In this document: positions 3,142 to 64,000 of the stretch, piece after piece
Position numbering within the stretch: position 1 is the first letter of the stretch
Layout: the number at the start of each line of letters is the position of its first letter
Assembly: GCA_965205015.1 (NCBI GenBank)
Contig: OZ242029.1
Span: 4,974,939-5,038,938, forward strand
Reading direction: 5' to 3'
From: Candidatus Poribacteria bacterium
GTDB taxonomy: Bacteria; Poribacteria; WGA-4E; WGA-3G
Length of the DNA: 64,000 nt
Made by a program: the position numbers and the translations under genes
Notes under the pieces: model-generated
Told to the model about the DNA's origin: nothing
What the model saw: only the letters and a program-made list of their open reading frames with translations
Database searches by the model: none

Positions 3142-4089
3142 ATGGCATATCTGCTCACCGGTGGCATGGGGTGCATCGGTACTTACGTCATCCGCGACCT
3201 ATTGACCGCCGGTGAAAAGGTAGTCGTTTACGATTTTGCTTACGACCTGACGATCCCCAAAATGGTCCTCACGGATGAACAACTTGAAGGGTTCACCTTT
3301 GTGCAGGGCGACATCACCGACTTGCCACACGTTTTGCGCACTATTCAAGAACATGAGATTGATCGGGTCATCCATCTCGCCTCGTGGCAGGTACCGGCGT
3401 GCAACGCGAATCCACCAGAAGCGTTAAAGGTGGTTTGCGAAGGCACGATCAACATATTGGAAGCAGCGCGCATTTTCAAGCTCAAACGGGTTGTATGGGC
3501 AAGCAGTGTCGCAGTCTTCGGCGCACCCGAGGATTACAACCACGAACAGATTCTCAATGATGCCCCCCATTACCCGAAATTCATCTACGGAGCGTGCAAA
3601 TCCCTCAACGAAAGATATGCGATGCACTATTTCGATGCCTACGGTGTCGATTCGATTGGGCTCCGGTTTACTGCTGTCTATGGGGTCGGTAGAACCCGTG
3701 GCATGAGTTCATTCACAACGCAAATGATCGAAGCAGTGGCGTTAGGCAAACCACACGTCTGTCCGTTCGGTGATGATGCTGTGGATTGGCAGTATGTAGA
3801 GGATGTCTCCCGTTCGATCGTGGTCGCTTGCACCTGCCCAACAACGCAGACCCGCGTCTTCAATGTGAAGGGCGGTATCCGACCGGTCAAAGACGGCGTG
3901 GCGTACCTCAAGACGTTGGTGCCAGATGCACAGATTACGTTGGAGCCAGGGGTATTTGGAATCTCGTGGGATTACGACGCGACACCTATCGCTGAGGAGA
4001 TGGGATTTACGCCTGACTACACGATGGAAGAAGGGATTTTGAAAACGTTTAATCGTTTCCGGGAGCGTGCGGGGTTGGCGCTGATATAA
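3142..4089 (+). CDS. NAD-dependent epimerase/dehydratase family protein
   Basis: N-terminal LLTGGMGCIGTYV Rossmann motif; YGACK catalytic YxxxK. Confidence 0.85.
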   Translation: MAYLLTGGMGCIGTYVIRDLLTAGEKVVVYDFAYDLTIPKMVLTDEQLEGFTFVQGDITDLPHVLRTIQEHEIDRVIHLASWQVPACNANPPEALKVVCEGTINILEAARIFKLKRVVWASSVAVFGAPEDYNHEQILNDAPHYPKFIYGACKSLNERYAMHYFDAYGVDSIGLRFTAVYGVGRTRGMSSFTTQMIEAVALGKPHVCPFGDDAVDWQYVEDVSRSIVVACTCPTTQTRVFNVKGGIRPVKDGVAYLKTLVPDAQITLEPGVFGISWDYDATPIAEEMGFTPDYTMEEGILKTFNRFRERAGLALI

Positions 4090-5764: not shown

Positions 5765-6826
5765 TTACTTCGGTGTACGCCAGATCATGATACCCCCAAC
5801 GGCAGCGTACATGAAGTTCGCGCCCCAACAGGCGAGAAAAGGATGAAGTTTGCCATTTTCACTCAATCCCTCAAGTACTGCAAAGGAGAGTGCCCAATAG
5901 ATAAAAGAGAGGAAGAAAGCGAGTACCAAACCCGCAAAGAAACCAGCCCTACCGAACCGGATAGCGATAGGTGCGCCAAGCATAATAACAACGACAGCTG
6001 CGAATGGGTACGCCGTTTTGTGATACAATTTTACCTGTTCTTTGCGCGAAATCTGTCCTGCTTCCTGTTTATAGGTGATCTGTTGGCGGAGTTCTTCGAT
6101 TGTCATGGCCCTCGGATCCTTTTCACTCCCGATAAAACGGGCGGGATCCTCGTGCCGCTCTATCGCATGCGTATCAAAAGCTTCATAACCGACCTCGACG
6201 CCCCTTTCAAAGTGGCGAATGTATCCATCCGTTAATTGCCAGTGGGTAGGTGTCCACACCGCTGTCTTCGCGAACGTTACGCGAGCGAGTTTCCCATCTG
6301 TATCATATTCATAGATAGTGAGTTGTTGGATTCTACGCGCGTCCAAAGCAATCCGCTGTGAGTAAAAGATACGGTCGCCTTTGCCTTTGAAGACGATGTT
6401 CCTGCCCCGACGCGGTCTAACGTTATTTTGTAAGAGATGCGCTTCATGAAAAGCAGGCGACGCAACCCGGTTATAAAAAATAGCGAAGAGTCCACAAATA
6501 ACGAGCGTTACCATCAAAACAGGCGCGAGGAGCCGGTAAACACTCAGACCGCCCGCCTTCATCGCGGTGAACTCGTTGCTCTGGACCATCCGACCCAGCA
6601 CAAAAAAGATGGCGACAAATGCAGCAACGGGCACTACCTCCATAATCCGACGCGGCGCTTGGAAGAGAACAATTTTAACAGCCGTCATATAAGCGACATC
6701 ATCATCAAACTTCTTGATGTCCTTATCCAGCAAACGCACGATAATAATCAGTGCGATAAAGAACAAAAGCCCGACAAAAAAGGCTTTCAGGTATTCGCGA
6801 AGCAGGTATCGATCTAAAATATTCAA
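5765..6826 (-). CDS. lptG: LPS export permease, LptF/LptG (YjgP/YjgQ) family, LptG-like
   Basis: MNILDRYLLREYLKAFFVGLLFF N-terminus typical of LptG; downstream member of tandem pair; TTG start. Confidence 0.8.
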   Translation of the reverse strand: MNILDRYLLREYLKAFFVGLLFFIALIIIVRLLDKDIKKFDDDVAYMTAVKIVLFQAPRRIMEVVPVAAFVAIFFVLGRMVQSNEFTAMKAGGLSVYRLLAPVLMVTLVICGLFAIFYNRVASPAFHEAHLLQNNVRPRRGRNIVFKGKGDRIFYSQRIALDARRIQQLTIYEYDTDGKLARVTFAKTAVWTPTHWQLTDGYIRHFERGVEVGYEAFDTHAIERHEDPARFIGSEKDPRAMTIEELRQQITYKQEAGQISRKEQVKLYHKTAYPFAAVVVIMLGAPIAIRFGRAGFFAGLVLAFFLSFIYWALSFAVLEGLSENGKLHPFLACWGANFMYAAVGGIMIWRTPK

Positions 6827-6848
6827 TTTTTAATTATACCTTGCGGAA
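6827..6848 (-). promoter_or_regulatory. conserved CCGCAAGG-TATAAT-TAAAAA motif abutting lptG start
   Basis: On the minus strand TATAAT ends 6 nt before the TTG start codon; same motif recurs at 8170, 22034, 27859, 30795, 51452 (and orphan copies at 9113, 62067). Confidence 0.4.
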
Positions 6849-6969
6849 TAAGGACATGGAACTGGCAATCAAGTGCCTTTCTTAAATCCGTTCTCCACTA
6901 CGTTACGGACTACAGACTTAGGATTTTGAGAAGAATTACAGGTACTGGCTGCTGACAGCCTCCCTTCGG

Positions 6970-8169
6970 TTATGATTCGACTTTCCTATTGACGACAAGC
7001 GTCAGCGTGTCGCGGGCGCGCCACGTCAGCAAGATCCCCTCGCCGATCATACGAATACTGAGAAAAACGCCCAACACGCCAATTGCTATATTGGGAAGCC
7101 ACATGGCAAGGGCAGGAGATATCATGCCGTTCAAACCTGCACTTTGACCGATCTGAAGCAGTAAGTAGTAAACCAAGATGACAGTTAATCCAATACCAAA
7201 CCCAATCATCTTACCGCCCTGTTTTACCATCAATCCAAGGGGCACGCCCATCAATCCGAACGCCAGACATGCGAAAGGGATAGAAAACTTTTTGTGGTAC
7301 TCAACCTCCGCGACACGGAGTTTATTCCGGGTATAGTCAGGATTCTGACTGGTTTGGACGGCGGCTTCCAAAGTATTGATGAATGCCTTGAGTTGGACGA
7401 TAGTCATGGACCGGGGTGTTTGGTTCCGTAAAGCCCCACGCTCCAGATCCTCGGTCAACTGCAGTGCGAGTTGTTGCTGCCGGAACTTTGTTATACGATA
7501 TCCATCCGAATTATCGGTTGTCGGTTCGTATGTAAGTCCATCGTAAAGCGTGAGCACGGCTCTGCCATTTTCAAAACCGAGGGTCCCTTCTTGCGCGTGA
7601 CTGAAACGAGGCCGTCCTGTCCAGATCCCATCCCATATTTTGACATCCTGCATGCGTCCACTCTTGGCATCCGTGGATTCGTACATCCAGAGTTTGCCTT
7701 CTCTCTCCAACTCCTTCATAACGGTGGCTTCTTCCAAAACGAACGTCGGATTGTGTCTTTGGATGTCGCGTTTGAGTGTCGCGTAAGCGAGATTTGCCCT
7801 TGGTAGCGCGTAGTCCATTAATCCGAGATTAACGATGCTTAGGACCACTGCCATGCCTAAAAGCGGGAGCATCAGGTGATGGAAAGCGAGCCCGTGTGCC
7901 TTCATGGCGATGATTTCATTATCGGTAGAGAGTCTTCCAAGAGAAAGTAAAATTGCGACCAAAGCCGCCATCGGAAGAGATAACACAACCGAAGCGGGCA
8001 TCACATAGATAAGCAACTCAACCAGATAAATCGGACTTATCCCCTTCTGCACAAAAAGTTTCGTCAACCGAAACAGGTCATCGAAGATGAGGATAAAGGT
8101 AAAACAGATAAGTGCTATTATGAAGGGTGGAAGAAATTCTTTAAGTATATACCGCGCTAATATTCTCAT
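6970..8169 (-). CDS. lptF: LPS export permease, LptF/LptG family, LptF-like
   Basis: MRILARYILKEFLPPFIIALICFTFIL N-terminus; 399 aa, multi-TM; upstream partner of lptG. Confidence 0.8.
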   Translation of the reverse strand: MRILARYILKEFLPPFIIALICFTFILIFDDLFRLTKLFVQKGISPIYLVELLIYVMPASVVLSLPMAALVAILLSLGRLSTDNEIIAMKAHGLAFHHLMLPLLGMAVVLSIVNLGLMDYALPRANLAYATLKRDIQRHNPTFVLEEATVMKELEREGKLWMYESTDAKSGRMQDVKIWDGIWTGRPRFSHAQEGTLGFENGRAVLTLYDGLTYEPTTDNSDGYRITKFRQQQLALQLTEDLERGALRNQTPRSMTIVQLKAFINTLEAAVQTSQNPDYTRNKLRVAEVEYHKKFSIPFACLAFGLMGVPLGLMVKQGGKMIGFGIGLTVILVYYLLLQIGQSAGLNGMISPALAMWLPNIAIGVLGVFLSIRMIGEGILLTWRARDTLTLVVNRKVES

Positions 8170-54799: not shown

Positions 54800-55300
54800 G
54801 TGGAAAACAGAAACGAAACGTTTAAAACAGAAAGCCCAGAGGAAACCCAGGCATTCGGAGAAAAATTGGGCAAAACGCTCAAGCAGGGAGATGTCATTGC
54901 CCTCGTCGGCGACCTCGGCACGGGTAAAACCTGTTTGACACAAGGCATTGCGCGCGGTGTCGGTATCGCGTCGGATGCAGTCGTCAACAGTCCTTCCTAT
55001 ATCCTGATTAACGAGTACAATGGGGCAATACCGATCTACCATATCGATCTGTACCGCCTCGAAAATAGTGAGGAGATCGCCGAACTCGGACTCAGTGAAT
55101 ATATGGAAGGCGATGGAATTTGCATTATTGAGTGGGCAGAACGGATGACAGACGCATTGCCCGATACCTGTATCAAGATACACATAACATTAGCAGCAAG
55201 CACCTCACACAGCAATGACGAAACTCACATGTCAATGTTCCAAAGTCCTGAAGATGAAAACATCCGACACATCGAAATTCAATATCCTATATCTCGATAG
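54800..55300 (+). CDS. tsaE: tRNA t6A37 biosynthesis ATPase TsaE
   Basis: LVGDLGTGKTCLTQGIARG P-loop typical of YjeE/TsaE. Confidence 0.85.
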   Translation: MENRNETFKTESPEETQAFGEKLGKTLKQGDVIALVGDLGTGKTCLTQGIARGVGIASDAVVNSPSYILINEYNGAIPIYHIDLYRLENSEEIAELGLSEYMEGDGICIIEWAERMTDALPDTCIKIHITLAASTSHSNDETHMSMFQSPEDENIRHIEIQYPISR

Positions 55301-56429
55301 CGGTTCGGGCATCGGCGGTGGGCAACGGAGTCTCCTACTCCTGCTACACCTATTAGACAAGGATCGTTTTACACCTTTCGTGGGATGCCTCGGTGATAGT
55401 CCTTTCGCCGCGGCGGTAGGAAAGACAGAGGCAAACGTCGTCCCCTTGGCTCTACCCGCCGCGCACAACAAAACCGATAAGGTCCGACGATTTACGTTCC
55501 GCGATCTGCTTGAAGATTTCCGGCAGCTTGGGGTTATCCTCCAACTTCATCGGATGGTAAAACGGTATGCGATCGACCTCATTCATGCGAACTCGCTTTC
55601 GGTGGCACTGCTCGGCGGTATCGTTGCCAGGCTAAACCGTATCCCCATCCTGATGCACAAACGCTACGCGACTTCCTACGGCATTCTGGATCGGATTTGC
55701 GAAAGATTTTTGCACCGCGTGATTCTCGTTTCGGAGGCAACCCGCTGGAATTTTGCGCCTACAGCAAAACAGACGTTAATCTATAATGGCGTCGATTTAG
55801 ACGCTTTTCAAGCGTCCGCAGAAGAGGTGGAAACCCTCCGATCAGAACTCCTTCCCGATGCATCTGATGCCTCAATCGTCACGGGAGTCGTGACTCGGAT
55901 TACACCAGAGAAAGGTATCCATTTTTTAGTGAGAGCAATAGCAGACCTCAAAGGAAAAATAGACAGCAAACTGCTGATCGTTGGCGGTCCTTACTTCCAA
56001 AAAGATATTGACTATATGGAGGAACTTAAACAAGAGGTTACAGATTTAGGCGTTGAAGACTCTGTCATCTTCACTGGATTTGTGTCGGATACACGGGTGG
56101 TTACAAGCCTCCTTGATATCGTATTGGTGCCCTCTATTATTCCAGAGGCATGCCCGCGCACCATTATTGAAGCAATGGCGGTCGGCAAACCGGTCATTGC
56201 CACACCACTCGGTGGAAGCAAGGAACTCGTCACCCCCGAAACAGGGGTCTTAGTGCCACCTGAAGACGCCTCGGCGATTGCGGATGCTATCGCAACACTC
56301 GCAACCCATCGAGAACGATTGAAAGCAATGGGTGAAGCCTCCCGCAACCGTGCTGAGCAGTTATTCAGCAGCGAAAAGAACACAGCATTGACGGAGGCTG
56401 TCTACACTGAATTGTTAGCCGTACGATAA
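55215..56429 (+). CDS. glycosyltransferase family 4
   Basis: EACPRTIIEAMAVGKPVIATPLGGSKELV (EX7E region); probable true start MKTSD at 55254; overlaps tsaE 3' end. Confidence 0.8.
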   Translation: MTKLTCQCSKVLKMKTSDTSKFNILYLDSGSGIGGGQRSLLLLLHLLDKDRFTPFVGCLGDSPFAAAVGKTEANVVPLALPAAHNKTDKVRRFTFRDLLEDFRQLGVILQLHRMVKRYAIDLIHANSLSVALLGGIVARLNRIPILMHKRYATSYGILDRICERFLHRVILVSEATRWNFAPTAKQTLIYNGVDLDAFQASAEEVETLRSELLPDASDASIVTGVVTRITPEKGIHFLVRAIADLKGKIDSKLLIVGGPYFQKDIDYMEELKQEVTDLGVEDSVIFTGFVSDTRVVTSLLDIVLVPSIIPEACPRTIIEAMAVGKPVIATPLGGSKELVTPETGVLVPPEDASAIADAIATLATHRERLKAMGEASRNRAEQLFSSEKNTALTEAVYTELLAVR

Positions 56430-56541
56430 GAGGTCTTCGCATTCCCAGTAGGAGCAATCTCCGAATAGCGACATCTCCTGTATAACACACAGATCAACAG
56501 AATTGCATGTTTCTACTATACCGACATAGGAGTTATCCATC

Positions 56542-57558
56542 ATGAGAGGAAAAACGATTAGTCCGGGGCAAGGTGCCCAAGCGAGTCAAGGTCAGGTGAG
56601 ACAAGTATCTCAACTGTTCGGTGAGGGCATCGGTGGCACCCCGGAATGGGTTGAAATCCACCGCACCAACGATGAATGGGAAGTGAAGCTCATCCAAGCC
56701 ACTTTGAGCGCGCAACAGATCCGGTGCCGTCCCATCGAATTAAGAGAGGAACGCCAAACCGCTCTCCTCGTAGCCCCGGAACACGAAGTGGAAGCCATGG
56801 AACTCATAAGCCGTATTGACGCAATCGTTACGGATAACGAAATGGCGACGCAAGCCGAAGAAACAGCGGAAGCACTCAAACAACGCGATATGACTGTCCC
56901 TCAGAAAGATACGCATCAACACGCGGATCCCGGTGATTCAGCAGAACTCGTCTTCGCCGAACGTGAAGGTATCGGCAGTGTCGTCTATATGGCAGGACAG
57001 GGATACGAACTCCGTGTCGGTCCAGAACCCTACGTCATCGTTCCAGAGCGCGATTGGGAGGAGTTCACAGACTTTAGTGCGCAACGCCAAGAGTTCGTGA
57101 TCCTCCTCCGCCACGAATACCCCGATCTCTTCGAGTGGATTCAAGACGGGAAACTCCTCGCAGAATTCATCCGTCTCATCGAGATGACGTACCAAGAAGG
57201 CGCGCCGCCGCTCCCGCATCGAGCCAGTGCCGCAACTGACGCTGACGAGCTCGATGCGACGCCTTACCATCCGCTTGCCCAATTGAGTCTCACTGTCGCC
57301 GTGATTTCGCTCATTGCCGTGCTTTTTCAGATTCCGTGGCAGATCAACCTTGTGTTGGCGGTCGTCGCTGTGGCATCAGCAGTCGTCGCGAAATACCAGA
57401 TCGATGTTAGCGACGGGGCATCCACAGGTGTTCCCATGGCGCTGAGTGCGATTGTGCTTGCGTGTCTTGTTGTCGTTTTTGCGTGGTGGCTGAGCCAGCG
57501 TCCGGAGCCGGTAGCACCAGAGAGACCCGCCACTCGTGAGACGATTGAGGATCGGTAG
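56542..57558 (+). CDS. hypothetical protein with DUF2007-like N-terminal domain and two C-terminal TM helices
   Basis: EWVEIHRTNDEWEVKLIQATLSAQQIRC resembles putative signal-transducing DUF2007; C-terminal hydrophobic helices. Confidence 0.4.
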   Translation: MRGKTISPGQGAQASQGQVRQVSQLFGEGIGGTPEWVEIHRTNDEWEVKLIQATLSAQQIRCRPIELREERQTALLVAPEHEVEAMELISRIDAIVTDNEMATQAEETAEALKQRDMTVPQKDTHQHADPGDSAELVFAEREGIGSVVYMAGQGYELRVGPEPYVIVPERDWEEFTDFSAQRQEFVILLRHEYPDLFEWIQDGKLLAEFIRLIEMTYQEGAPPLPHRASAATDADELDATPYHPLAQLSLTVAVISLIAVLFQIPWQINLVLAVVAVASAVVAKYQIDVSDGASTGVPMALSAIVLACLVVVFAWWLSQRPEPVAPERPATRETIEDR

Positions 57559-57645
57559 CTTACGTTTGATACCGAAAAAACAGAAGTTGACACTTCATGG
57601 GATATATGGTAGGGTTAAGGGTCAAAGTGCCGCCACGGTTAGAGC

Positions 57646-57912
57646 ATGAATACACGCTTAAACAAAAAGCACCAAAGGACATTAGAGGCTATTTTTAGCA
57701 CACAAACGCCAGCAACGTTGCAATGGCGGCGGATTGAAGCCCTTTTCAAAGCACTGGGTGCTACAAAAAAGGAGAGACGAGGCTCGGGTGTGACATTTAG
57801 GTTGAATGGAGAAACTGTCGGTTTTCACCTCCCTCACCCTCGCAAAGAGGCACATCGATATCACATTCGTGATGCCCGAGATTTTTTGAAACGAGTAGGA
57901 ATAACATTATGA
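57646..57912 (+). CDS. hicA: type II toxin HicA family (long form)
   Basis: KHQRTLEAIF...WRRIEALFKALGA...GSGVTFRLNGETVGFHLPHPRKEAHRYHIRDARDFLKRVGI matches HicA/YcfA mRNA-interferase pattern (GSH...HxP...K). Confidence 0.6.
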   Translation: MNTRLNKKHQRTLEAIFSTQTPATLQWRRIEALFKALGATKKERRGSGVTFRLNGETVGFHLPHPRKEAHRYHIRDARDFLKRVGITL

Positions 57913-58160
57913 AGACAATAACATATAAAGGATACACTGCGGAAATTATCTATAGTGACGAGGATGATTGCTTTGTTGGTCATATCATCAATATTGATGC
58001 CATTGTTGGTTTTCATGGCGATACTGACGAAGAATTGCGCGACGCTTTTGAAAACATGGTAGAACTTTACATCGAAACCCTTGAGGCACCAGAAAACGCG
58101 CCGCAAAAGCATGATGCTGGTGGTTTTTGGGCACGCCTACGTGAAGTTTTCCATCTGTAG
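57909..58160 (+). CDS. hicB: type II antitoxin HicB family (short, lacks C-terminal DNA-binding domain)
   Basis: YKGYTAEIIYSDEDDCFVGHIINIDAIVGFHGDTDEELRDAFENMVELYIE typical HicB N-domain; overlaps hicA stop by 4 nt; only 83 aa. Confidence 0.6.
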   Translation: MKTITYKGYTAEIIYSDEDDCFVGHIINIDAIVGFHGDTDEELRDAFENMVELYIETLEAPENAPQKHDAGGFWARLREVFHL

Positions 58161-58184
58161 AAATACCACCTTCGCTATTTACAC

Positions 58185-60188
58185 TTGAGCGGGTTAGTTC
58201 TGGTTCACGCAAGGGAATTCTACCTATACATGGAAGGCGACCATGTGAAAAAAAGACGACATCACTCCCACATCGGAACTGAAACGACCTCGCTCCTTCC
58301 GCCGCTCACCATCGGCGTGGCTCTGATCCTTCTCAACGCGTATTGGATCGCCTTCGTCAGTGGTATCCATCACTCCCTGAATCCTGCTTATGCCTCCCTG
58401 TTTATCGCCCCAATCGTCAACCTCTTTTTTCTCCTGTTAATCAATACACTGCTGAAACGGATCCGTCCACAACTCGCTTTGAGCCGCGCCCAACTCCTCT
58501 TGGTCTATCAGATGTTGGTCATGCTATGTGTCGTCTCCGGACACAACCCGATGGACTTCATTCTTGGAATCCTCGCGCATCCGTTCTGGTTCGCTACCTT
58601 TGAAAACGAATACGCAACACTTTTCCATCGGTATATCCCGACTTGGTTCACGGTTCAAGATAAAGGCGCGCTCACCGGTTTTTTTGAAGGGAACTCGACC
58701 TTATACACACCGAGACACCTACTCGCATGGATCGGTCCTGTGCTGCTTTGGTCGTTTGTCACATTCGTTCTCTTTTTCATCTTGATGTGCTTCAACAGCA
58801 TCCAGCGTTTGCAATGGAGCGAACGGGAACGACTCAGTTATCCGATCGCACAACTCCCGATAGAGATGACGACCCCCCGCTTTTTTTCGAGAAGATTATT
58901 GTGGCTTGGGTTTAGTATCTGTGCCGTGATAGAACTCCTCAACGGACTCCACTTTCTCTATCCGTTTGTGCCGGGTGTGCCGCTTAAAATACCCGATTTT
59001 GGGGCGAAAATCTTTACGGCGAAACCTTGGAACGCGATTGGATGGTTACCGCTCTTCTTTTATCCTTGGGTCATCGCATTGACGTTCTTTGTGCCGCTCG
59101 AACTCTCATTTTCAGTGTGGTTTTTCTTTCTATTTACAAAATTTCAGTTGATTGTCGGGAGCATCGGCGGCTGGAAATCGCTGCAAGGGTTTCCGTATTA
59201 CAATCAACAGGGAATCGGGGCATGGTTGACCCTTGGAATTCTCATCTTATGGACGAGCCGCAAGCATCTCAAGGCAGTATTTACGACGGCTTTGAAGCCT
59301 CTTGGAAACAGGGCGACCCCCGCCAGTAATGAACCGTTTCACTATCGCACGGCACTGCTCGGCATCTTGGTAGGTACTGCGATCCTCGTTATCATTTTTC
59401 AACAGGCTGGTATGTCCGTTGGAATTCTCCTCGCCTTCCTATGCCTCTATTTCCTCATGTCTATCGCGATAACATACGCGCGGGCGGCGGTCGGTGTGCC
59501 GTATCATGAAGTCATTTGGACGCATCCGCCGCTGATGATCGTCTCGGTTTTAGGCACACGACGGACGGGTGCGGCGAATTTGACGCTTTTCTCTTTCTTA
59601 TATCCGTATGTTCGCGACAACGTCTCGCACCCAATGCCGAGTCAGTTAGAAGGGTTCAAAATCGCCGAACGCGCCCCGGTTTCCCAGAGAAAGATGGCGA
59701 TCGCTATGATAGTCGCCCTATTGGTTGCCATCCCTGTCTCTTTCTGGGCGTATTTGCACCTCATCTATCAACACGGCGCAGTGCGAACTGAGGGGTATAT
59801 TATTGGCATCGGTATTGAAACCTTTGAACGTATGCTACTCCCATGGTTACAACAGTCACACGCGACAGATAGCACGGGATTGAGTTTCACTGCGTTCGCC
59901 TCGCTGTTTACGTTGGGATTAATGTTTCTGAGAAGACAGTTTATCTGGTTCCCTTTCCACCCAACGGGTTATGCACTCGGTTTATCTGCGGGGATGGTTT
60001 GGGTCTGGAGCGCGATCTGTGTGGGTTGGATCATCAAGGCGGTTCTCCTCAAATTCGGGGGGTTACGCATCTACCGGAAGGCGGCTCCATTCTTTGTCGG
60101 CGTGGTTCTGGGTGACTTTCTGATCGGAACGTTTTGGAGTTTAGTGGGTGGGATTTTTGGGATACCCGTCTATCGGGTTTGGTATTAA
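58185..60188 (+). CDS. large polytopic membrane protein (~14 TM), hypothetical
   Basis: Highly hydrophobic, W/F-rich helices throughout; bracketed by duplicated hic loci. Confidence 0.55.
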   Translation: MSGLVLVHAREFYLYMEGDHVKKRRHHSHIGTETTSLLPPLTIGVALILLNAYWIAFVSGIHHSLNPAYASLFIAPIVNLFFLLLINTLLKRIRPQLALSRAQLLLVYQMLVMLCVVSGHNPMDFILGILAHPFWFATFENEYATLFHRYIPTWFTVQDKGALTGFFEGNSTLYTPRHLLAWIGPVLLWSFVTFVLFFILMCFNSIQRLQWSERERLSYPIAQLPIEMTTPRFFSRRLLWLGFSICAVIELLNGLHFLYPFVPGVPLKIPDFGAKIFTAKPWNAIGWLPLFFYPWVIALTFFVPLELSFSVWFFFLFTKFQLIVGSIGGWKSLQGFPYYNQQGIGAWLTLGILILWTSRKHLKAVFTTALKPLGNRATPASNEPFHYRTALLGILVGTAILVIIFQQAGMSVGILLAFLCLYFLMSIAITYARAAVGVPYHEVIWTHPPLMIVSVLGTRRTGAANLTLFSFLYPYVRDNVSHPMPSQLEGFKIAERAPVSQRKMAIAMIVALLVAIPVSFWAYLHLIYQHGAVRTEGYIIGIGIETFERMLLPWLQQSHATDSTGLSFTAFASLFTLGLMFLRRQFIWFPFHPTGYALGLSAGMVWVWSAICVGWIIKAVLLKFGGLRIYRKAAPFFVGVVLGDFLIGTFWSLVGGIFGIPVYRVWY

Positions 60189-60195
60189 GGACTGC

Positions 60196-60308
60196 GGGTG
60201 GACCAGATTTTTTAAGTTGACACTCCAACCGGTATATGATAGGGTTAAGGCAAAGTGGTATCAAATTAAGCGTGCCCGTAATTTTCTGGAAAAGATAAAA
60301 GTAATACC
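60196..60308. repeat. duplicated hic promoter region with internally deleted hicA
   Basis: aagTTGACAct(c/t)ca...gtatatg(a/g)tagggttaagg(c/g)tcaaagtg matches 57584-57632; retains hicA 3' end (cgtgcccgtaattttctgg...) but hicA body is missing. Confidence 0.6.
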
Positions 60309-60560
60309 ATGAAGACAATGACATACCGAGGGTATACAGTGGAAATTATCTACAGTGAAGAAGATGAATGCTTTGTCGGGGATGTTATCAATATTGATGA
60401 TATCATTTGTTTCCACGGTGATACCGATGAAGAATTACGCGTTGCTTTTGAAGGCGTGGTAGATCTCTATCTGGAGGCACTGGAGGAACCAGAGAACCCG
60501 CCACAAAAACACTTTGCGTGGCGGTTTCTATCGCGTCTACGGCAAGCCTTCCACTTGTAA
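60309..60560 (+). CDS. hicB: HicB family antitoxin paralog (orphan)
   Basis: ~70% identical to 57909..58160 product (MKTMTYRGYTVEIIYSEEDECFVGDVINIDDIICFHGDTDEELR). Confidence 0.6.
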   Translation: MKTMTYRGYTVEIIYSEEDECFVGDVINIDDIICFHGDTDEELRVAFEGVVDLYLEALEEPENPPQKHFAWRFLSRLRQAFHL

Positions 60561-60620
60561 AAGCAGAAGGTTACTCGGCTCAGTACACGAACAAAACCAT
60601 GAGAATAAGGAATTTTACCG

Positions 60621-61310
60621 GTGAAGACATGTATCATTGTTTTTGCTAAGAATCCGGTGCCGAACCAAGTCAAGACGCGGCTCGTCCCACCCCTCTCACC
60701 GGAACAAGCGGCGACAGTGTATACGGCGTTTCTCACAGATGGGTGTGACACACTCGCCAAACTTCCCGAGGTGGACCGCATCATCGCCTATACACCGGCA
60801 GGAGCACAATCCGATTTACAAGGGCTTATCAGAGACGATGCCATTTACATCCCACAAATGGGGGCTGACCTCGGGGAACGGCTCGCCTCGGCAACACAGT
60901 GGGCAATTGAACAGGGATATACAAAAATTTTACTCGTCGGGTCCGACAGTCCGACACTACCGATTGCTTATGTCACAAAAGCATTCACACTGCTCGACTC
61001 GCGTGACGTCACCATCGGACCGAGTACAGACGGTGGCTATTATCTCATCGGCTTTTCGGCAACGAACATAGCGACGACCGTCCCGTTTATTTTTCAGGAA
61101 ATCGCATGGAGCACGGCAGATGTCTTTCAGCAAACAGTGGCACGTATCCGCTCGCTAAAGGGAACCTTAGGACTCTTACCACCGTGGTATGATATAGATA
61201 CGGCTGCAGATTTGGCGTTCTTGCACGCTCACATCTCGGCGATGCGACTCGCGGGCGAAACAGTAGCAGCCGTCAGAACAGAATCACTATTGACAGAACT
61301 ATTTTCGTAA
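60621..61310 (+). CDS. DUF2064 / TIGR04282-like glycosyltransferase-like protein
   Basis: MKTCIIVFAKNPVPNQVKTRL N-terminal signature. Confidence 0.65.
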   Translation: MKTCIIVFAKNPVPNQVKTRLVPPLSPEQAATVYTAFLTDGCDTLAKLPEVDRIIAYTPAGAQSDLQGLIRDDAIYIPQMGADLGERLASATQWAIEQGYTKILLVGSDSPTLPIAYVTKAFTLLDSRDVTIGPSTDGGYYLIGFSATNIATTVPFIFQEIAWSTADVFQQTVARIRSLKGTLGLLPPWYDIDTAADLAFLHAHISAMRLAGETVAAVRTESLLTELFS

Positions 61311-61334
61311 ACAGTAAGGAAAGGAGACTTAATT

Positions 61335-62066
61335 ATGGGACAATTAGATGGAAAATTTGCGATTGTAACGGGTGGAAACCGAGGCATCGGAAGAGGGATT
61401 GCGAGAGGGCTTGCTGCTGAGGGCGCGACGCTCACAATCGCCGCAAGGGATGCCGACCTCCTTGAAGAAACCGCCAACGAATTCCGCGCAAACGGCACAA
61501 AAGTGTTGACTGTCCCGACCGATGTAACGGACGAGGCACAGATCAAAGCACTCTTTGAAAAGTCGATGGACGCGTACGGGCGTTTGGATATCCTCGTCAA
61601 TAACGCAGGGGCATTCAATGGGGGTCCCATCGGTGAACTCGCAACGGAAGATTGGGATTGGGTTATTAATGTGAATCTCCGTGCGCCGTTTATCTGTTCA
61701 CGCGAGGCATTCGCAATTATGAAAGCACAAGGTGAAGGGGGACGTATCATCAACGTCGGGAGTATCTCTGCGCATCGCGTCCGTCCCCGAACAGCCCCTT
61801 ACAGTGCGAGCAAATTCGGTATCTGGGGCTTGACCCAGGTAACAGCTCTTGAAGGTAGACCGTTCGGTATCACAGCGAGTTGTTTGCAACCGGGGAACAC
61901 TTACGTAGAACGGCACCAAAACCGCCCACAAGCCCCTATGGAACCGATGATGGACGTTGACGATCTCGCGCAAGCCGCCGTTCTCATGGCGACGCTTCCG
62001 CCGAATATCAATATGCTGGAAGCAACCGTCCTACCGATCGGTCAACTCTATGTCGGGCGTGGATAA
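61335..62066 (+). CDS. SDR family oxidoreductase
   Basis: VTGGNRGIGRGIARGL; YSASKFG YxxxK. Confidence 0.85.
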   Translation: MGQLDGKFAIVTGGNRGIGRGIARGLAAEGATLTIAARDADLLEETANEFRANGTKVLTVPTDVTDEAQIKALFEKSMDAYGRLDILVNNAGAFNGGPIGELATEDWDWVINVNLRAPFICSREAFAIMKAQGEGGRIINVGSISAHRVRPRTAPYSASKFGIWGLTQVTALEGRPFGITASCLQPGNTYVERHQNRPQAPMEPMMDVDDLAQAAVLMATLPPNINMLEATVLPIGQLYVGRG

Positions 62067-62240
62067 CTTTTTAATTTTACCTTGCGGCGCATTGGCGGGC
62101 AGGTACAAGACCTGCCCCTACAAGATGCCTATTTATTCCTCTGGTTTACTATTTGTCGTGTATATCTCGAATTTGAAGAAACACCCAAGCAAAACACCCT
62201 GCGCCGTTGTTGCAGGCTGCGTTTTTGGTTAAGAATCGCG
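62067..62240. repeat. composite intergenic repeat (motif copy + GGCAGGTACAAGACCTGCC-CCTACAAG element + ACACCCAAGCAAAACACC + GTTGTTGCAGGCTGCG module)
   Basis: Concatenation of four modules each found elsewhere in the window. Confidence 0.55.
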
Positions 62241-62274
62241 AGCACAACTCGCTCTTACAGGAAAATCTTCACCG

Positions 62275-63507
62275 ATGGAGACAATTATGCAAGTGAATCG
62301 GACCCAATTCATGGAACAAGGGTATCTCGTTCTCCGAGAGGTGATCCCACCGGAAGAACTGGACGCGCTTCGGGAAAGTTATGAATTAATGGTATCGCGT
62401 CAGCGAGATATCTGGGCGCGAGAACGCGGACCGAACGAACCACCGGGCGGTGTTTGGGAGTCTTCACCACAACCTCGCTTACACCTTGGACGGGGTCCAC
62501 TCGCAGGGCTTGTCGATGAAAAAACGGCGAGTGCTGTCGAAATTTGGGCACACGAAAACACGCAAGGTGTCAGCAGTGAACTGCTCGGTGAGGCGGATGC
62601 CGGGGTTACTGAGATGATGCTCATGTGCAGTCCCGTCAAAGACTGTGGACCCGCCGCGTGGCATCGCGACCATCACCCGATTGATACCGCCCCATTGCAA
62701 GGCTATATCGACGATATCGTAGAGACGGGACCGCGCTACGTTCAGTGGAATCTCTCACTCTACGACGATAACGTGCTGTGGGTGCTACCGGGGAGTCATC
62801 TGCGGGTGAACACCGAAGCGGAAAACGAGCTGCTGCTGGCAGATCCAAAAGTACCATTACCGGGTGCCGTTCAAACACATCTCAATGCGGGGGATGGTGT
62901 CGTTTACATTTTGCCGATCTTACACTGGGGAAGCAACTACAGTCGGAAGATGCGCCGCACGATTCACGGTGGATTTGCAAATCATACGCACTATCAAGCG
63001 TTCGACTACATAGATTACCTCTCACCGGAAATCCGAGAGATGTTTGATCGGTGGAATGAACGTAGTCATCAAATGCGGGACTGGACCGAAAGCGCGCTCC
63101 GAGCGGCTATAGAAAAGGATGCCACTGCCTACCACGCAGCACTGGAAAACCTCCACCCAAGTAGAGGCGAAAAGGGGAAGATGTTATCAACCGTCTTTTT
63201 GTGCAAAGCCGCCTGTTTCGTGGCACTCGAACACGGCTATGAACTCCCAGAAATCCCGGATGACCTTCGGAATCGAGGTAAGGGTTTCCATGCCATTACC
63301 CTCAATTGGGGACCGCCCTTCGCCGAACGATTCACGAAAGCGGAAGCCGCTACGCTCTGGGAGCGCTTTAAGCCACTCGACGCATTACTTAAAACTGACG
63401 AAGAGTTGTATCTACCGGGTTTCCAATCCGGTCCGATGCATTACTATTTCAATGAAATGCCCGCCAATTTCGGTGTCGCAGATTTCATTAAAACGTGGGA
63501 CCTATAG
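62275..63507 (+). CDS. phytanoyl-CoA dioxygenase (PhyH) family protein, putative
   Basis: N-terminal FMEQGYLVLREVIPPEEL typical of PhyH family; WHRDHH (HxD) and later HGG His. Confidence 0.55.
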   Translation: METIMQVNRTQFMEQGYLVLREVIPPEELDALRESYELMVSRQRDIWARERGPNEPPGGVWESSPQPRLHLGRGPLAGLVDEKTASAVEIWAHENTQGVSSELLGEADAGVTEMMLMCSPVKDCGPAAWHRDHHPIDTAPLQGYIDDIVETGPRYVQWNLSLYDDNVLWVLPGSHLRVNTEAENELLLADPKVPLPGAVQTHLNAGDGVVYILPILHWGSNYSRKMRRTIHGGFANHTHYQAFDYIDYLSPEIREMFDRWNERSHQMRDWTESALRAAIEKDATAYHAALENLHPSRGEKGKMLSTVFLCKAACFVALEHGYELPEIPDDLRNRGKGFHAITLNWGPPFAERFTKAEAATLWERFKPLDALLKTDEELYLPGFQSGPMHYYFNEMPANFGVADFIKTWDL

Positions 63508-64000
63508 CGGTAAACCGAGCATCCCGCTGAGATAGAAATACGCTTCCTCGGTATAACGCGGCAGATTCTCTGGATCTTCAACTTCCAACTCCAACGTCAG
63601 ATCGCCTTGGTAGCCGACCTCTTGGAGCGTTTCGATAATCTGCTTGAGTTTGAGTTCACCGCGTCCGATACCGACAGATACAGTCCCGAGATGGTCCTTG
63701 AGATGTACCGCATAGATACGAGAACCGAATTGACGGATCGCCGCGAGCGTATCAACACCCGACGAGTGGAAATGTCCTGTATCTATGCAGACCCCGACCC
63801 GTTCGTCAGGAATAGCGTCTAAAAGCGTTTGGAAATCCTCGGGTTGTTCAAGCACATTTCCGTGGTGTGGTTCAAGCGTCAACTTGATTTGACTCTCCGC
63901 GGGCATACGCTGCAACACTTCGCTCACGCAGGAGGCAACCCTGTCCAAGGCACCGGGTTCCGTTCTCGGTTGTGCACCACTTGTCGTCAGATGTGTTGCC
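63502..64000 (-). CDS. sugar phosphate isomerase/epimerase (xylose-isomerase-like TIM barrel), 5'-truncated by window end
   Basis: VCIDTGHFHSSG, YAVHLKD, GDLTLE conserved strands; N-terminus lies beyond 64000. Confidence 0.6.
   Translation of the reverse strand, partial: ATHLTTSGAQPRTEPGALDRVASCVSEVLQRMPAESQIKLTLEPHHGNVLEQPEDFQTLLDAIPDERVGVCIDTGHFHSSGVDTLAAIRQFGSRIYAVHLKDHLGTVSVGIGRGELKLKQIIETLQEVGYQGDLTLELEVEDPENLPRYTEEAYFYLSGMLGLPL

Follow-up and report, generated by a model that had tools for sequence, protein, structure and literature searches.

We found that a polytopic membrane-protein gene (DUF6785) in a sponge-associated Poribacteria genome is flanked on both sides by hic cassettes, one of them intact and the other with hicA deleted. 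The two slots beside this gene are probably an old toxin-antitoxin hot spot, with a compact hicAB module upstream and a solitary antitoxin downstream. The locus points to no new mechanism: it is a compact Class 1 hicAB with a solitary antitoxin. The features are listed in Table 1, in positions of the 64-kb stretch of DNA that was analysed (the window); related loci are cited by L numbers.

Table 1. Features of the hic locus in the window
Feature	Position	Strand	Basis or remark
Promoter-like block and 5'UTR, upstream hicAB	57584..57645	+	sequence; repeated at 60214-60250; conserved in relatives
Elements of upstream block	-35 TTGACA 57587-57592; 17-nt spacer; TG 57607-08; -10-like TAGGGT 57610-15	+	
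hicA, intact HicA-family toxin gene, 88 aa	57646..57912	+	Pfam and model
hicB1, short HicB antitoxin, 83 aa	57909..58160	+	overlaps hicA by 4 nt (ATGA)
DUF6785/DUF6784 polytopic membrane protein, ORF 667 aa	58185..60188	+	Pfam DUF6785 E = 9e-148, DUF6784 E = 5e-31
Promoter-like block, downstream cassette	60214..60250	+	sequence and repeat of upstream block
Elements of downstream block	TTGACA 60217-22; 17-nt spacer; TG 60237-38; TAGGGT 60240-45	+	
hicA remnant: deletion junction and last ~17 hicA codons	60251..60312	+	alignment to L016, L035, L046
hicB2, solitary HicB paralogue, 83 aa	60309..60560	+	70% identical to HicB1; truncated tail WRFLSRLRQAFHL-stop

The promoter-like block at 57584-57620 is seen again at 60214-60250 with 31 of 37 bases identical. 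A degenerate pattern derived from both copies matched the 64-kb window twice, at these two blocks, where shuffled sequences gave an expectation of 0. The 3' end of hicA together with hicB (57848-58160) recurs at 60248-60560 with 71% nucleotide and 70% amino-acid identity, and the alignment of 57848-58147 with 60248-60547 is gap-free, also at 71%. HicB1 and HicB2 share 58 of 83 residues (BLASTP E = 2e-44). In helix alpha1 (residues 40-59), which is the HicA-contacting helix in solved complexes (PMC10865869), they are identical at 14 of 20 positions, an indirect hint that HicB2 might neutralise a related HicA. About 230 nt of hicA are gone from the downstream copy; the gap was seen directly on alignment to the nearly identical loci L016 and L035, in which hicA is intact at that position. 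An earlier note on this DNA had described a repeat of the promoter and hicA-hicB after the membrane gene, a clean deletion that spared the promoter and the hicA 3' end, and ~70% identity of the two HicB proteins, all of which these alignments bear out. It had also counted CAAAGTG as part of the retained promoter, but these junction letters fit either the 5'UTR or hicA codons ~67-69.

The remnant reads ..YQIKRARNFLEKIKVIP*, ends at 60312 and overlaps the hicB2 ATG at 60309, and it now forms the leader of hicB2. The same hicA deletion is present in L046, the same type of junction was found in L010, L049 and L012, and in five genomes the same junction is joined to differing hicA allele remnants. 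The break falls within a short imperfect repeat. Intact cassettes carry an imperfect 12-nt repeat between the 5'UTR and hicA codons ~66-69, which matches at 9-10 of 12 positions in several of them and is weak (8/12) in the window's own upstream cassette. From these sequences we infer that the downstream hicA was removed by a microhomology deletion of ~230 nt between the repeat in the 5'UTR and codons ~66-69, an event that would have fused the promoter to a hicB2 still predicted to be functional.

The downstream promoter-like block starts 26 nt past the DUF6785 stop codon. A simple sigma-70 consensus scan called neither hic block, because TAGGGT agrees with TATAAT at only three of six positions, and the case for a promoter is therefore built on the perfect -35, its 17-nt distance from the -10, the TG just before the -10 and conservation across relatives. 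By alignment, the same block precedes hicA in most related loci, lies directly after the DUF6785 stop in most relatives and is retained in most hicA-deleted cassettes. A strict regular expression matched just two further loci, owing to variation in the -10 (TAGAGT, TAGTGT, TAAAGT), which made alignment necessary. The sole result of the promoter and terminator consensus scan was a weak hairpin at 60164-60178; the scan found no terminator-like site 3' of hicB. An Rfam scan of 57000-61000 returned no RNA family.

HicA scored 34.9 bits with Pfam PF07927, above the curated threshold of 27 bits (E = 1.7e-8), and the match spanned positions 1-57 of the 58-position profile. Its predicted model has the HicA fold, with solved HicA structures as best matches. 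Together with the profile tie of HicB to RHH-type HicB (below), this upholds the hic assignment, for which the earlier note had asked for profile searches. Sequence searches of the PDB with the single HicA and with a HicA profile gave chance-level matches only. In characterised HicA proteins RNase activity and toxicity depend on the histidine of a Gly-x-His motif (Gly22/His24 are motif residues in BpsHicA, His28 in YpHicA3 and His23 in EcHicA; PMC11594946). The window HicA lacks the canonical G-S-H histidine and has Gly48 at that position, a placement based on motif spacing and Pfam coordinates rather than on residue-level structural alignment. G46 and S47 are invariant in the family, and position 48 is S, G, T, A or I in relatives. 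The family conserves H61, P63 and H64 fully or almost fully, and either H61 (invariant) or H64 (nearly invariant) could substitute for the missing histidine. We rejected the idea that HicA has decayed locally for want of this residue: HicA proteins paired with RHH-type HicB relatives elsewhere show the same G-S-R/G pattern, which is therefore a subfamily trait. With the catalytic histidine absent and position 48 variable, an RNase mechanism is assumed for this HicA.

In HicB1 the N-terminal HicB (partial RNase H-like) domain takes up residues 1-60; behind it come a linker and a truncated RHH (GGFWARLREVFHL-stop). Profile comparison with ribbon-helix-helix (RHH) HicB proteins gave 99.9%. Residues 1-82 match RHH-type relatives column for column, the terminal RLREVFHL aligning to Rl.p.lH of those proteins, and the chain ends two residues into the first helix of the DNA-binding domain. 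The earlier note had stated that both proteins lack this C-terminal domain; no complete domain is indeed present and both RHH helices are gone, but the linker persists, as does an RHH stump comprising the beta-strand and the initial turn of helix 1. The truncated form is fixed throughout the Poribacteria family, with R76, L77, R78 and L83 invariant and H82 nearly so. These proteins fall outside the classical Classes 3/4 HicB, as they stop before the RHH helices. Pfam, NCBIfam and PADLOC scans of both copies found no match, in the case of Pfam because PF05534 spans only the linker and RHH, and PDB sequence searches with the single HicB and a HicB profile gave chance-level matches only. The upstream slot would thus hold a HicA-fold toxin of an 87-88-aa subfamily and a HicB consisting of a HicA-binding N-terminal domain and an RHH stump. 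Judged by this layout, HicB very probably neutralises HicA by direct binding and would be incapable of autorepression in the manner of an RHH dimer. Toxicity, neutralisation and promoter activity are all predicted here.

The DUF6785 gene itself is a conserved chromosomal gene whose flanks serve as cassette slots; it is a bystander outside the hic modules. Its true start is probably ATG 58230 or GTG 58245, and orthologues align from residue ~21 on. A gene for a 338-aa protein lies on its upstream side and DUF2064-SDR-PhyH genes lie downstream, all on one strand, the nearest of them 60 nt past the end of hicB2. We found no mention of DUF6785 in the literature. Papers naming both 'Poribacteria' and 'HicB' use each term once or twice and, by their titles, do not have the DUF6785 locus as their subject.

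We surveyed 42 Poribacteria loci (41 species representatives and the window), which hold 60 hic cassettes. Cassettes lie beside this DUF6785 gene in 41 of the 42 loci (downstream in 39, upstream in 17, on both sides in 15), with at most two per side and totals that run from 0 (in L043) to 4. L017 and L042 also lack a downstream cassette, and most loci have no upstream one. A locus retrieved separately via HicB, L092, appears to carry three cassettes in all. All HicB and HicA family members that were looked up map to this one locus, and in relatives the same slots also hold mazF-type, DarT/NADAR and TIR genes. Intact hicB was found in 55 of 60 cassettes against 25 of 60 for hicA, which has been lost via several different lesions, and at least 15 of the 42 loci have hicB with no intact hicA at the locus. 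The sequence database likewise holds 126 HicA clusters against 238 HicB clusters. The hicB alleles form at least eight clusters at 80% identity, and clusters are found in both slots. The alleles nearest to hicB2 are 87-88% identical and reside in other genomes. The window, L046, L016 and L035 have near-identical flanks and mosaic hicB alleles; recombination therefore does occur in the region.

The two hicB copies of the window differ with dN 0.164 and pS 0.73, and their synonymous sites are saturated. They are old paralogues, neither a recent duplication nor an assembly artefact. The earlier note's view of the repeat as a local duplication is contradicted by this saturation and by the two-sided layout, which recurs in many independent assemblies, multi-megabase contigs included. 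An assembly artefact or a very recent segmental duplication has nothing in its favour beyond the existence of the repeat; the copies differ at 29% of nucleotides and in internal structure, and the data in hand leave it practically no chance. dN/dS is ~0.12 for paired and solitary hicB alike and 0.04-0.26 for close solitary pairs. Solitary hicB genes are thus kept by selection, with or without hicA. hicB2 is such a solitary antitoxin, predicted to be functional and without a cognate toxin gene, as it follows a mere 17-codon hicA remnant.

Taken together, the two intergenic slots of one DUF6785 gene are probably a site where small hic cassettes have long been arriving and turning over, and the downstream slot of the window would have received another cassette, drawn from an old and diverged lineage of alleles. 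The most likely role of the solitary hicB is that of a spare or cross-reacting antitoxin, acting on the HicA of the opposite slot or on hic cassettes that recombination brings in. An 'anti-addiction' idea exists for chromosomal antitoxins, and the antitoxin-only arrangement of this kind raised in the earlier note is plausible. Looking at the locus only, the 'spare antitoxin' of at least 15 hicB-only loci has no known resident toxin.

We weighed this reading against three others. HicB might have been domesticated for a host function tied to the locus (the DUF6785 protein, or expression of the DUF2064-SDR-PhyH genes), leaving hicA as a dispensable leftover. The restriction of the family to the DUF6785 locus in all samples would fit, as would the equal purifying selection on solitary and paired hicB, the at least 15 of 42 loci with hicB but no intact hicA, the invariant truncated tail, and the single-strand gene order with no terminator-like site after hicB. 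We nevertheless regard domestication as unlikely. Copy number runs from 0 to 4 with slots often empty, no hic genes lie beside DUF6785 paralogues (40-45% identity), hicB is missing at the more remote orthologues L044, L045 and L047, and other toxin-antitoxin cargo enters the same slots. The allele clusters, mosaic recombination and slot-swapping are typical of conflict systems and not of housekeeping partners. Selection might instead act on the downstream promoter alone, driving the DUF2064-SDR-PhyH genes with hicB2 as a decaying passenger. Retention of the block in most hicA-deleted cassettes and the short, terminator-free distance to the next gene speak for this, but it accounts for the promoter and not for the protein: hicB is intact in nearly all cassettes and constrained in close solitary copies, whereas the neighbouring hicA remnants diverge markedly between genomes by eye, and L017 and L043 do without any downstream hic cassette. 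We consider this explanation quite improbable.

The earlier note had also suggested that the hic copies, as direct repeats, could loop out or mobilise the membrane gene. They do bracket the gene in direct orientation, and mosaic alleles occur in close relatives, yet the prospects of such a unit, or of a composite element, are very poor. RecA-dependent exchange usually needs ~20-30 nt of identity, and the longest exact run common to these diverged, 71% identical copies is 13 nt. No recombinase, transposase or terminal inverted repeat was found in 57300-60800, nor any recombinase or transposase gene in 55000-64000, so the locus does not have the make-up of a composite element. The DUF6785 gene and its conserved neighbours are present in 42 of 42 loci, with hic on both sides, one or neither, and the gene is also present in loci retrieved via HicB or HicA. 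A metagenome scan with the upstream 338-aa protein for alleles without the DUF6785 gene returned only five loci, mostly short or distant. The hot-spot reading is the one we prefer.

We think it rather doubtful that the short HicB has a selectable function independent of a resident toxin. In at least 15 Poribacteria species, however, one or more hicB genes with a predicted promoter are retained under strong purifying selection while the locus has no intact hicA, and the multi-allelic cassettes recombine and change slots. Such a pattern would fit population-level immunity in dense populations of sponge symbionts, where HicB alleles would act against hicA cassettes that come in through recombination or with mobile elements. 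It would fit just as well if HicB had taken on a new role in the cell. In either case the conserved RHH stump would do something other than bind DNA.

The locus is most readily compared with Class 1 hicAB modules, in which hicA lies upstream of and is linked to or overlaps a hicB whose small product (60-90 aa) has no DNA-binding domain that can be recognised (Gerdes 2024, mBio 15:e03293-23; PMC10865869). This class is the most prevalent, has had no experimental test, and its regulation has been raised as a question (PMC10865869). The window module belongs to it by its compact, overlapping hicA-hicB order (4 nt) and its 83-aa HicB. It differs in that the short form can be traced to an RHH-type HicB cut two residues into helix 1 with the stump conserved, in that the family seems restricted to a single chromosomal locus within a single phylum, and in that more than half of the cassettes are toxin-less. 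With 60 cassettes around one fixed site in 42 loci, it offers a natural series bearing on Class 1 regulation, shows the origin of a short HicB by truncation of an RHH-type form, and shows repeated independent loss of the toxin with antitoxin and promoter kept. It is a convenient system for asking how compact hicAB modules are controlled and why solitary antitoxins persist.

RHH-type (Class 4) HicAB systems, known from Burkholderia pseudomallei (6g26/6g1n), Yersinia pestis HicA3B3 (4p78) and Streptococcus pneumoniae HicBA (5yrz), have the same gene order, and the predicted HicA and HicB models match their structures; the RHH-type relatives L098 and L099 have HicA partners of the same 87-88-aa type. 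In contrast to these systems, the Poribacteria HicB lacks both RHH helices, so that the dimeric DNA-binding, tetramerising unit cannot form, and the Poribacteria HicA lacks the catalytic histidine (PMC11594946). Stand-alone HicB-fold proteins such as TTHA1013 (1wv8) and TTHA0281 (2dsy) are 15-17% identical and have no RHH stump. Defence-island clusters similarly group hic cassettes and solitary hicB beside other toxin-antitoxin or defence genes; an island in Methanosarcina barkeri, for instance, contains two hicBA loci together with two solitary hicB genes (PMC10865869). The Poribacteria cassettes, however, sit in two fixed slots flanking a conserved gene of housekeeping type whose neighbours are conserved as well, and their evolution looks vertical and recombinational, with no obvious mobile island.

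Reading the sequence together with a repeat comparison bore out the layout described in an earlier note on this region: intact hicAB upstream of the membrane-protein (DUF6785) gene, and a promoter, hicA remnant and hicB downstream of it. Two direct repeats connect the sequences on either side of the 667-aa ORF. When both copies of the 37-nt block were combined into a degenerate pattern, it matched only 2 sites in the 64-kb window, where shuffles predict 0. The start-to-start spacings of the 37-nt and 300-nt repeat pairs differ by 230 nt, which accounts for the hicA body absent from the downstream copy. As proposed, the promoter (TTGACA/TAGGGT) and the hicA 3' end (~17 codons) are kept there, and the stop of the remnant overlaps the hicB ATG exactly as upstream. 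The HicB copies are indeed ~70% identical (58/83 aa, E = 2e-44). GC content is 0.42-0.45 in the hic cassettes and 0.50-0.56 in their neighbours. The terminator-like hairpin lies directly upstream of the downstream hic promoter. Beyond the gene that follows hicB2 come an SDR gene and one for a PhyH-family dioxygenase, and this order is conserved.

Features of the window and of related loci (L handles: genomic loci retrieved in database scans; slot: intergenic space on either side of the DUF6785 gene)
Feature	Position	Detail
37-nt block	57584-57620; again at 60214-60250	31/37 bases identical
300-nt repeat	57848-58147; again at 60248-60547	71% identity, in register, gap-free
DUF6785 gene	58185-60188	also DUF6784
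Terminator-like hairpin	60164-60178	ACCCG-TCTAT-CGGGT plus T-rich run, within DUF6785 final codons
Downstream promoter block	60217-60245	TTGACA, 17-nt spacer, TAGGGT
Downstream hicA remnant		junction, then final ~17 hicA codons (..YQIKRARNFLEKIKVIP-stop)
Gene after hicB2	60621-61310	TIGR04282 ('arsenosugar biosynthesis glycosyltransferase' family, DUF2064), 186 bits
WD40 protein, up to 742 aa	L007 1727-3600; L020, L023, L033, L009, L013	upstream slot, beside NADAR-DarT1 antitoxin (PF22397)
SSB-DarT protein (DarT domain)	L001 4003-5822	adjoining NADAR antitoxin
PemK/MazF toxin gene (PF02452)	L016 and L046, both ~3300-4000; also L026, L031, L041	upstream slot
TIR protein, 412 aa	L027 207-1445	N-terminal TIR/SEFIR domain; upstream of hic cassette
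RRXRR-domain protein (PF14239), 343 aa	L042 ~6267-7300	downstream slot, replacing hic cassette
94-aa HicB variants	L013 6294-6578; L033 6378-6662	different, longer tail replacing RLRQALHL
88-codon hicA frames, no internal stop	L018 ~6062; L030 ~6045; L040 ~6093; L024 ~6070	downstream slot; start position ATA (L018, L030, L040) or ACA (L024)
hicA mini-ORF	L011 ~6040-6084	hicA start + 4 codons fused in frame to last ~17 codons

Scanning species-representative genomes with the membrane protein retrieved 44 orthologous loci; paralogues accounted for about 36 more, and Poribacteria for nearly all of the loci. Cassettes were counted in the 41 orthologues at ≥85% identity plus the window (42 loci); the remaining three (L044, L045, L047) were at 60-69%. 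The close orthologues share one conserved gene order: TsaE, glycosyltransferase, 338-aa membrane protein, slot, DUF6785, slot, DUF2064, SDR, PhyH. At least one hic cassette was present at 41/42 loci; the downstream slot was filled in 39/42, the upstream slot in 17/42 and both in 15/42, with no more than two cassettes per side. A locus retrieved separately via HicB (L092) apparently holds three in all. No hic cassette was found at the paralogue loci or the three distant orthologues, and independently looked-up HicB and HicA members all lay at the DUF6785 locus wherever the contig was long enough to tell. Several DUF6785/DUF6784 paralogues, 40-45% identical, occur in Poribacteria genomes (L050-L085), and the full scan gave 406 relatives across the collection; we found no literature mention of this family.

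In some genomes, other toxin-antitoxin or defence genes occupied the slots. The WD40 or SSB-DarT gene with its NADAR-DarT1 antitoxin looks like a DarTG-like module; each of the best 25 Pfam matches listed for the 742-aa protein was to a WD40/beta-propeller family. In the window's closest relatives (L016, L046) PemK/MazF occupies the slot that holds hicAB in the window. A 113-aa ORF without a Pfam match precedes the PemK/MazF gene. The RRXRR gene possibly encodes a transposon-associated nuclease. As for the DUF6785 gene, it provides the flanks that serve as slots but is otherwise a bystander.

Neither 83-aa HicB matched Pfam, NCBIfam, PADLOC or PDB-sequence models. A direct Pfam match is absent because PF05534 ('HicB', 51 positions) spans only the linker and ribbon-helix-helix (RHH) domain. 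A profile of 42 family members brought up 3854 relatives, and PF05534 was present in 36/45 aligned sequences (43 relatives and the two window copies). Against a profile of 18 PF05534-bearing relatives it matched over columns 1-82 (99.9% probability, E = 6.5e-36), which supports the hic assignment. The tail ..QKHDAGGFWARLREVFHL-stop aligned with ..KPYSGKFmlRlpPelH of longer, RHH-type HicB, a segment made up of the RHH beta-strand plus the first turn of helix 1. The window proteins thus lack both RHH helices, and the usual C-terminal DNA-binding domain is incomplete, as had been suspected; no helix remnant was seen 3' of either hicB stop codon in the window. In a collection of 5.8 billion proteins, all but a few of 120 listed members (238 found) were 83-84 aa long, and every source name given among those listed was Candidatus Poribacteria. 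Four tail residues (R76, L77, R78, L83) never vary, and H82 hardly does. Together, family-wide length and invariant tail indicate that the truncation is old, fixed and under selection, and rule out a recent nonsense mutation. After each 94-aa variant comes another hicB, of the normal 83 aa.

Characterised HicA toxins require the histidine of Gly-x-His (PMC11594946). Family members all have G46 and S47, but the residue that follows differs among relatives and is Gly in the window; H9 and H61 are likewise invariant, and H64 almost so. On unrelated contigs, two RHH-type HicB relatives are paired with HicA of the same architecture (87-88 aa, G-S-R and H-x-P-H); the missing histidine is thus a trait of the subfamily and no sign of local decay.

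An intact hicB (83-84-aa ORF) was present in 55/60 cassettes, against 25/60 for hicA, an imbalance mirrored in database clusters (238 HicB, 126 HicA). In 20 cassettes hicA was not detected by tblastn, though some, including the window's, retain a short remnant; others had 3' remnants with differing break points (6), an altered start codon (ATA, ACA, CGG) or fusion (6), a premature stop (2) or a frameshift (1). L046, L010, L049 and L012 have the same type of junction as the window, with remnants of differing hicA alleles. In several intact cassettes, AAGAGTCAAAGC of the 5'UTR is imperfectly repeated (9-10/12) as AAGAGGCAAAkC at hicA codons ~66-69; the upstream cassette of the window has a weaker version (8/12). 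From these two observations we infer recurrent, microhomology-mediated hicA deletion. Another clean deletion, in the upstream slot of L035, joins the promoter straight to the hicB ATG. The ATA/ACA-start frames share one distinct promoter and leader type and could be silenced or very weakly translated toxins. The hicB beside the mini-ORF reads as 112 aa.

Median hicB dN/dS was 0.12 for both paired-paired and solitary-solitary comparisons (paired: with hicA; solitary: without intact hicA), and 0.04-0.26 for close solitary pairs. Purifying selection thus acts on hicB with or without hicA, and in at least 15 species the locus retains hicB but has no intact hicA. Window hicB1 and hicB2 differ by dN 0.164 and pS 0.73, with synonymous sites saturated; they are old paralogues or separately inherited alleles. 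The hicB copies form at least 8 clusters at 80% identity, the largest with members from both slots. Four genomes with near-identical flanks (window, L046, L016, L035) carry mosaic alleles: L046 combines the window-type deleted leader with the L016 hicB allele, and L035 hicB is window-like in its 5' half and L016-like in its 3' half. This pattern points to frequent recombination among cassettes.

By family analogy, HicA would be a small RNA-targeting toxin (we assume RNase activity for the window's copy) bound by the N-terminal domain of HicB. In solved HicAB complexes, HicB helix alpha1 packs against the HicA sheet (PMC10865869); HicB1 and HicB2 are identical at 14/20 positions of this helix. 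Without RHH helices the dimeric DNA-binding unit would not form, so classical autorepression of the conserved TTGACA-17-TG-n-TAGGGT promoter is improbable. The downstream cassette kept this promoter and a functional-looking hicB2 after hicA loss, and HicB2 most likely acts as a spare or cross-reacting antitoxin.

The suggestion that the direct repeats loop out or mobilise the membrane gene is contradicted by a longest exact run of only 13 nt between the copies, by the lack of a recombinase and by the presence of the DUF6785 gene at every locus, including those retrieved by other queries. Copy divergence and the same layout in many independent assemblies likewise exclude an assembly artefact or recent duplication. 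The earlier interpretation therefore stands for hic anatomy, hicA deletion and truncated HicB, and falls for loop-out and recent duplication. Retention of the promoter to drive the downstream operon may contribute, but leaves the protein-level constraint on hicB unexplained. That HicB is domesticated and toxin-independent fits a locus-bound family and the species keeping hicB alone, yet we consider it unlikely.

We conclude that the locus is a Class 1-type hicAB plus solitary hicB in a conserved two-slot Poribacteria toxin-antitoxin hot spot; it adds useful evolutionary detail, and the mechanism is not new. Classes 1 and 2 of Gerdes are the most prevalent hicAB, experimentally untested and with unexplained regulation (PMC10865869). 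Class 1 comprises a small HicB, no recognisable DNA-binding domain and overlapping genes (PMC10865869), and the window's hicAB fits it on all three counts.
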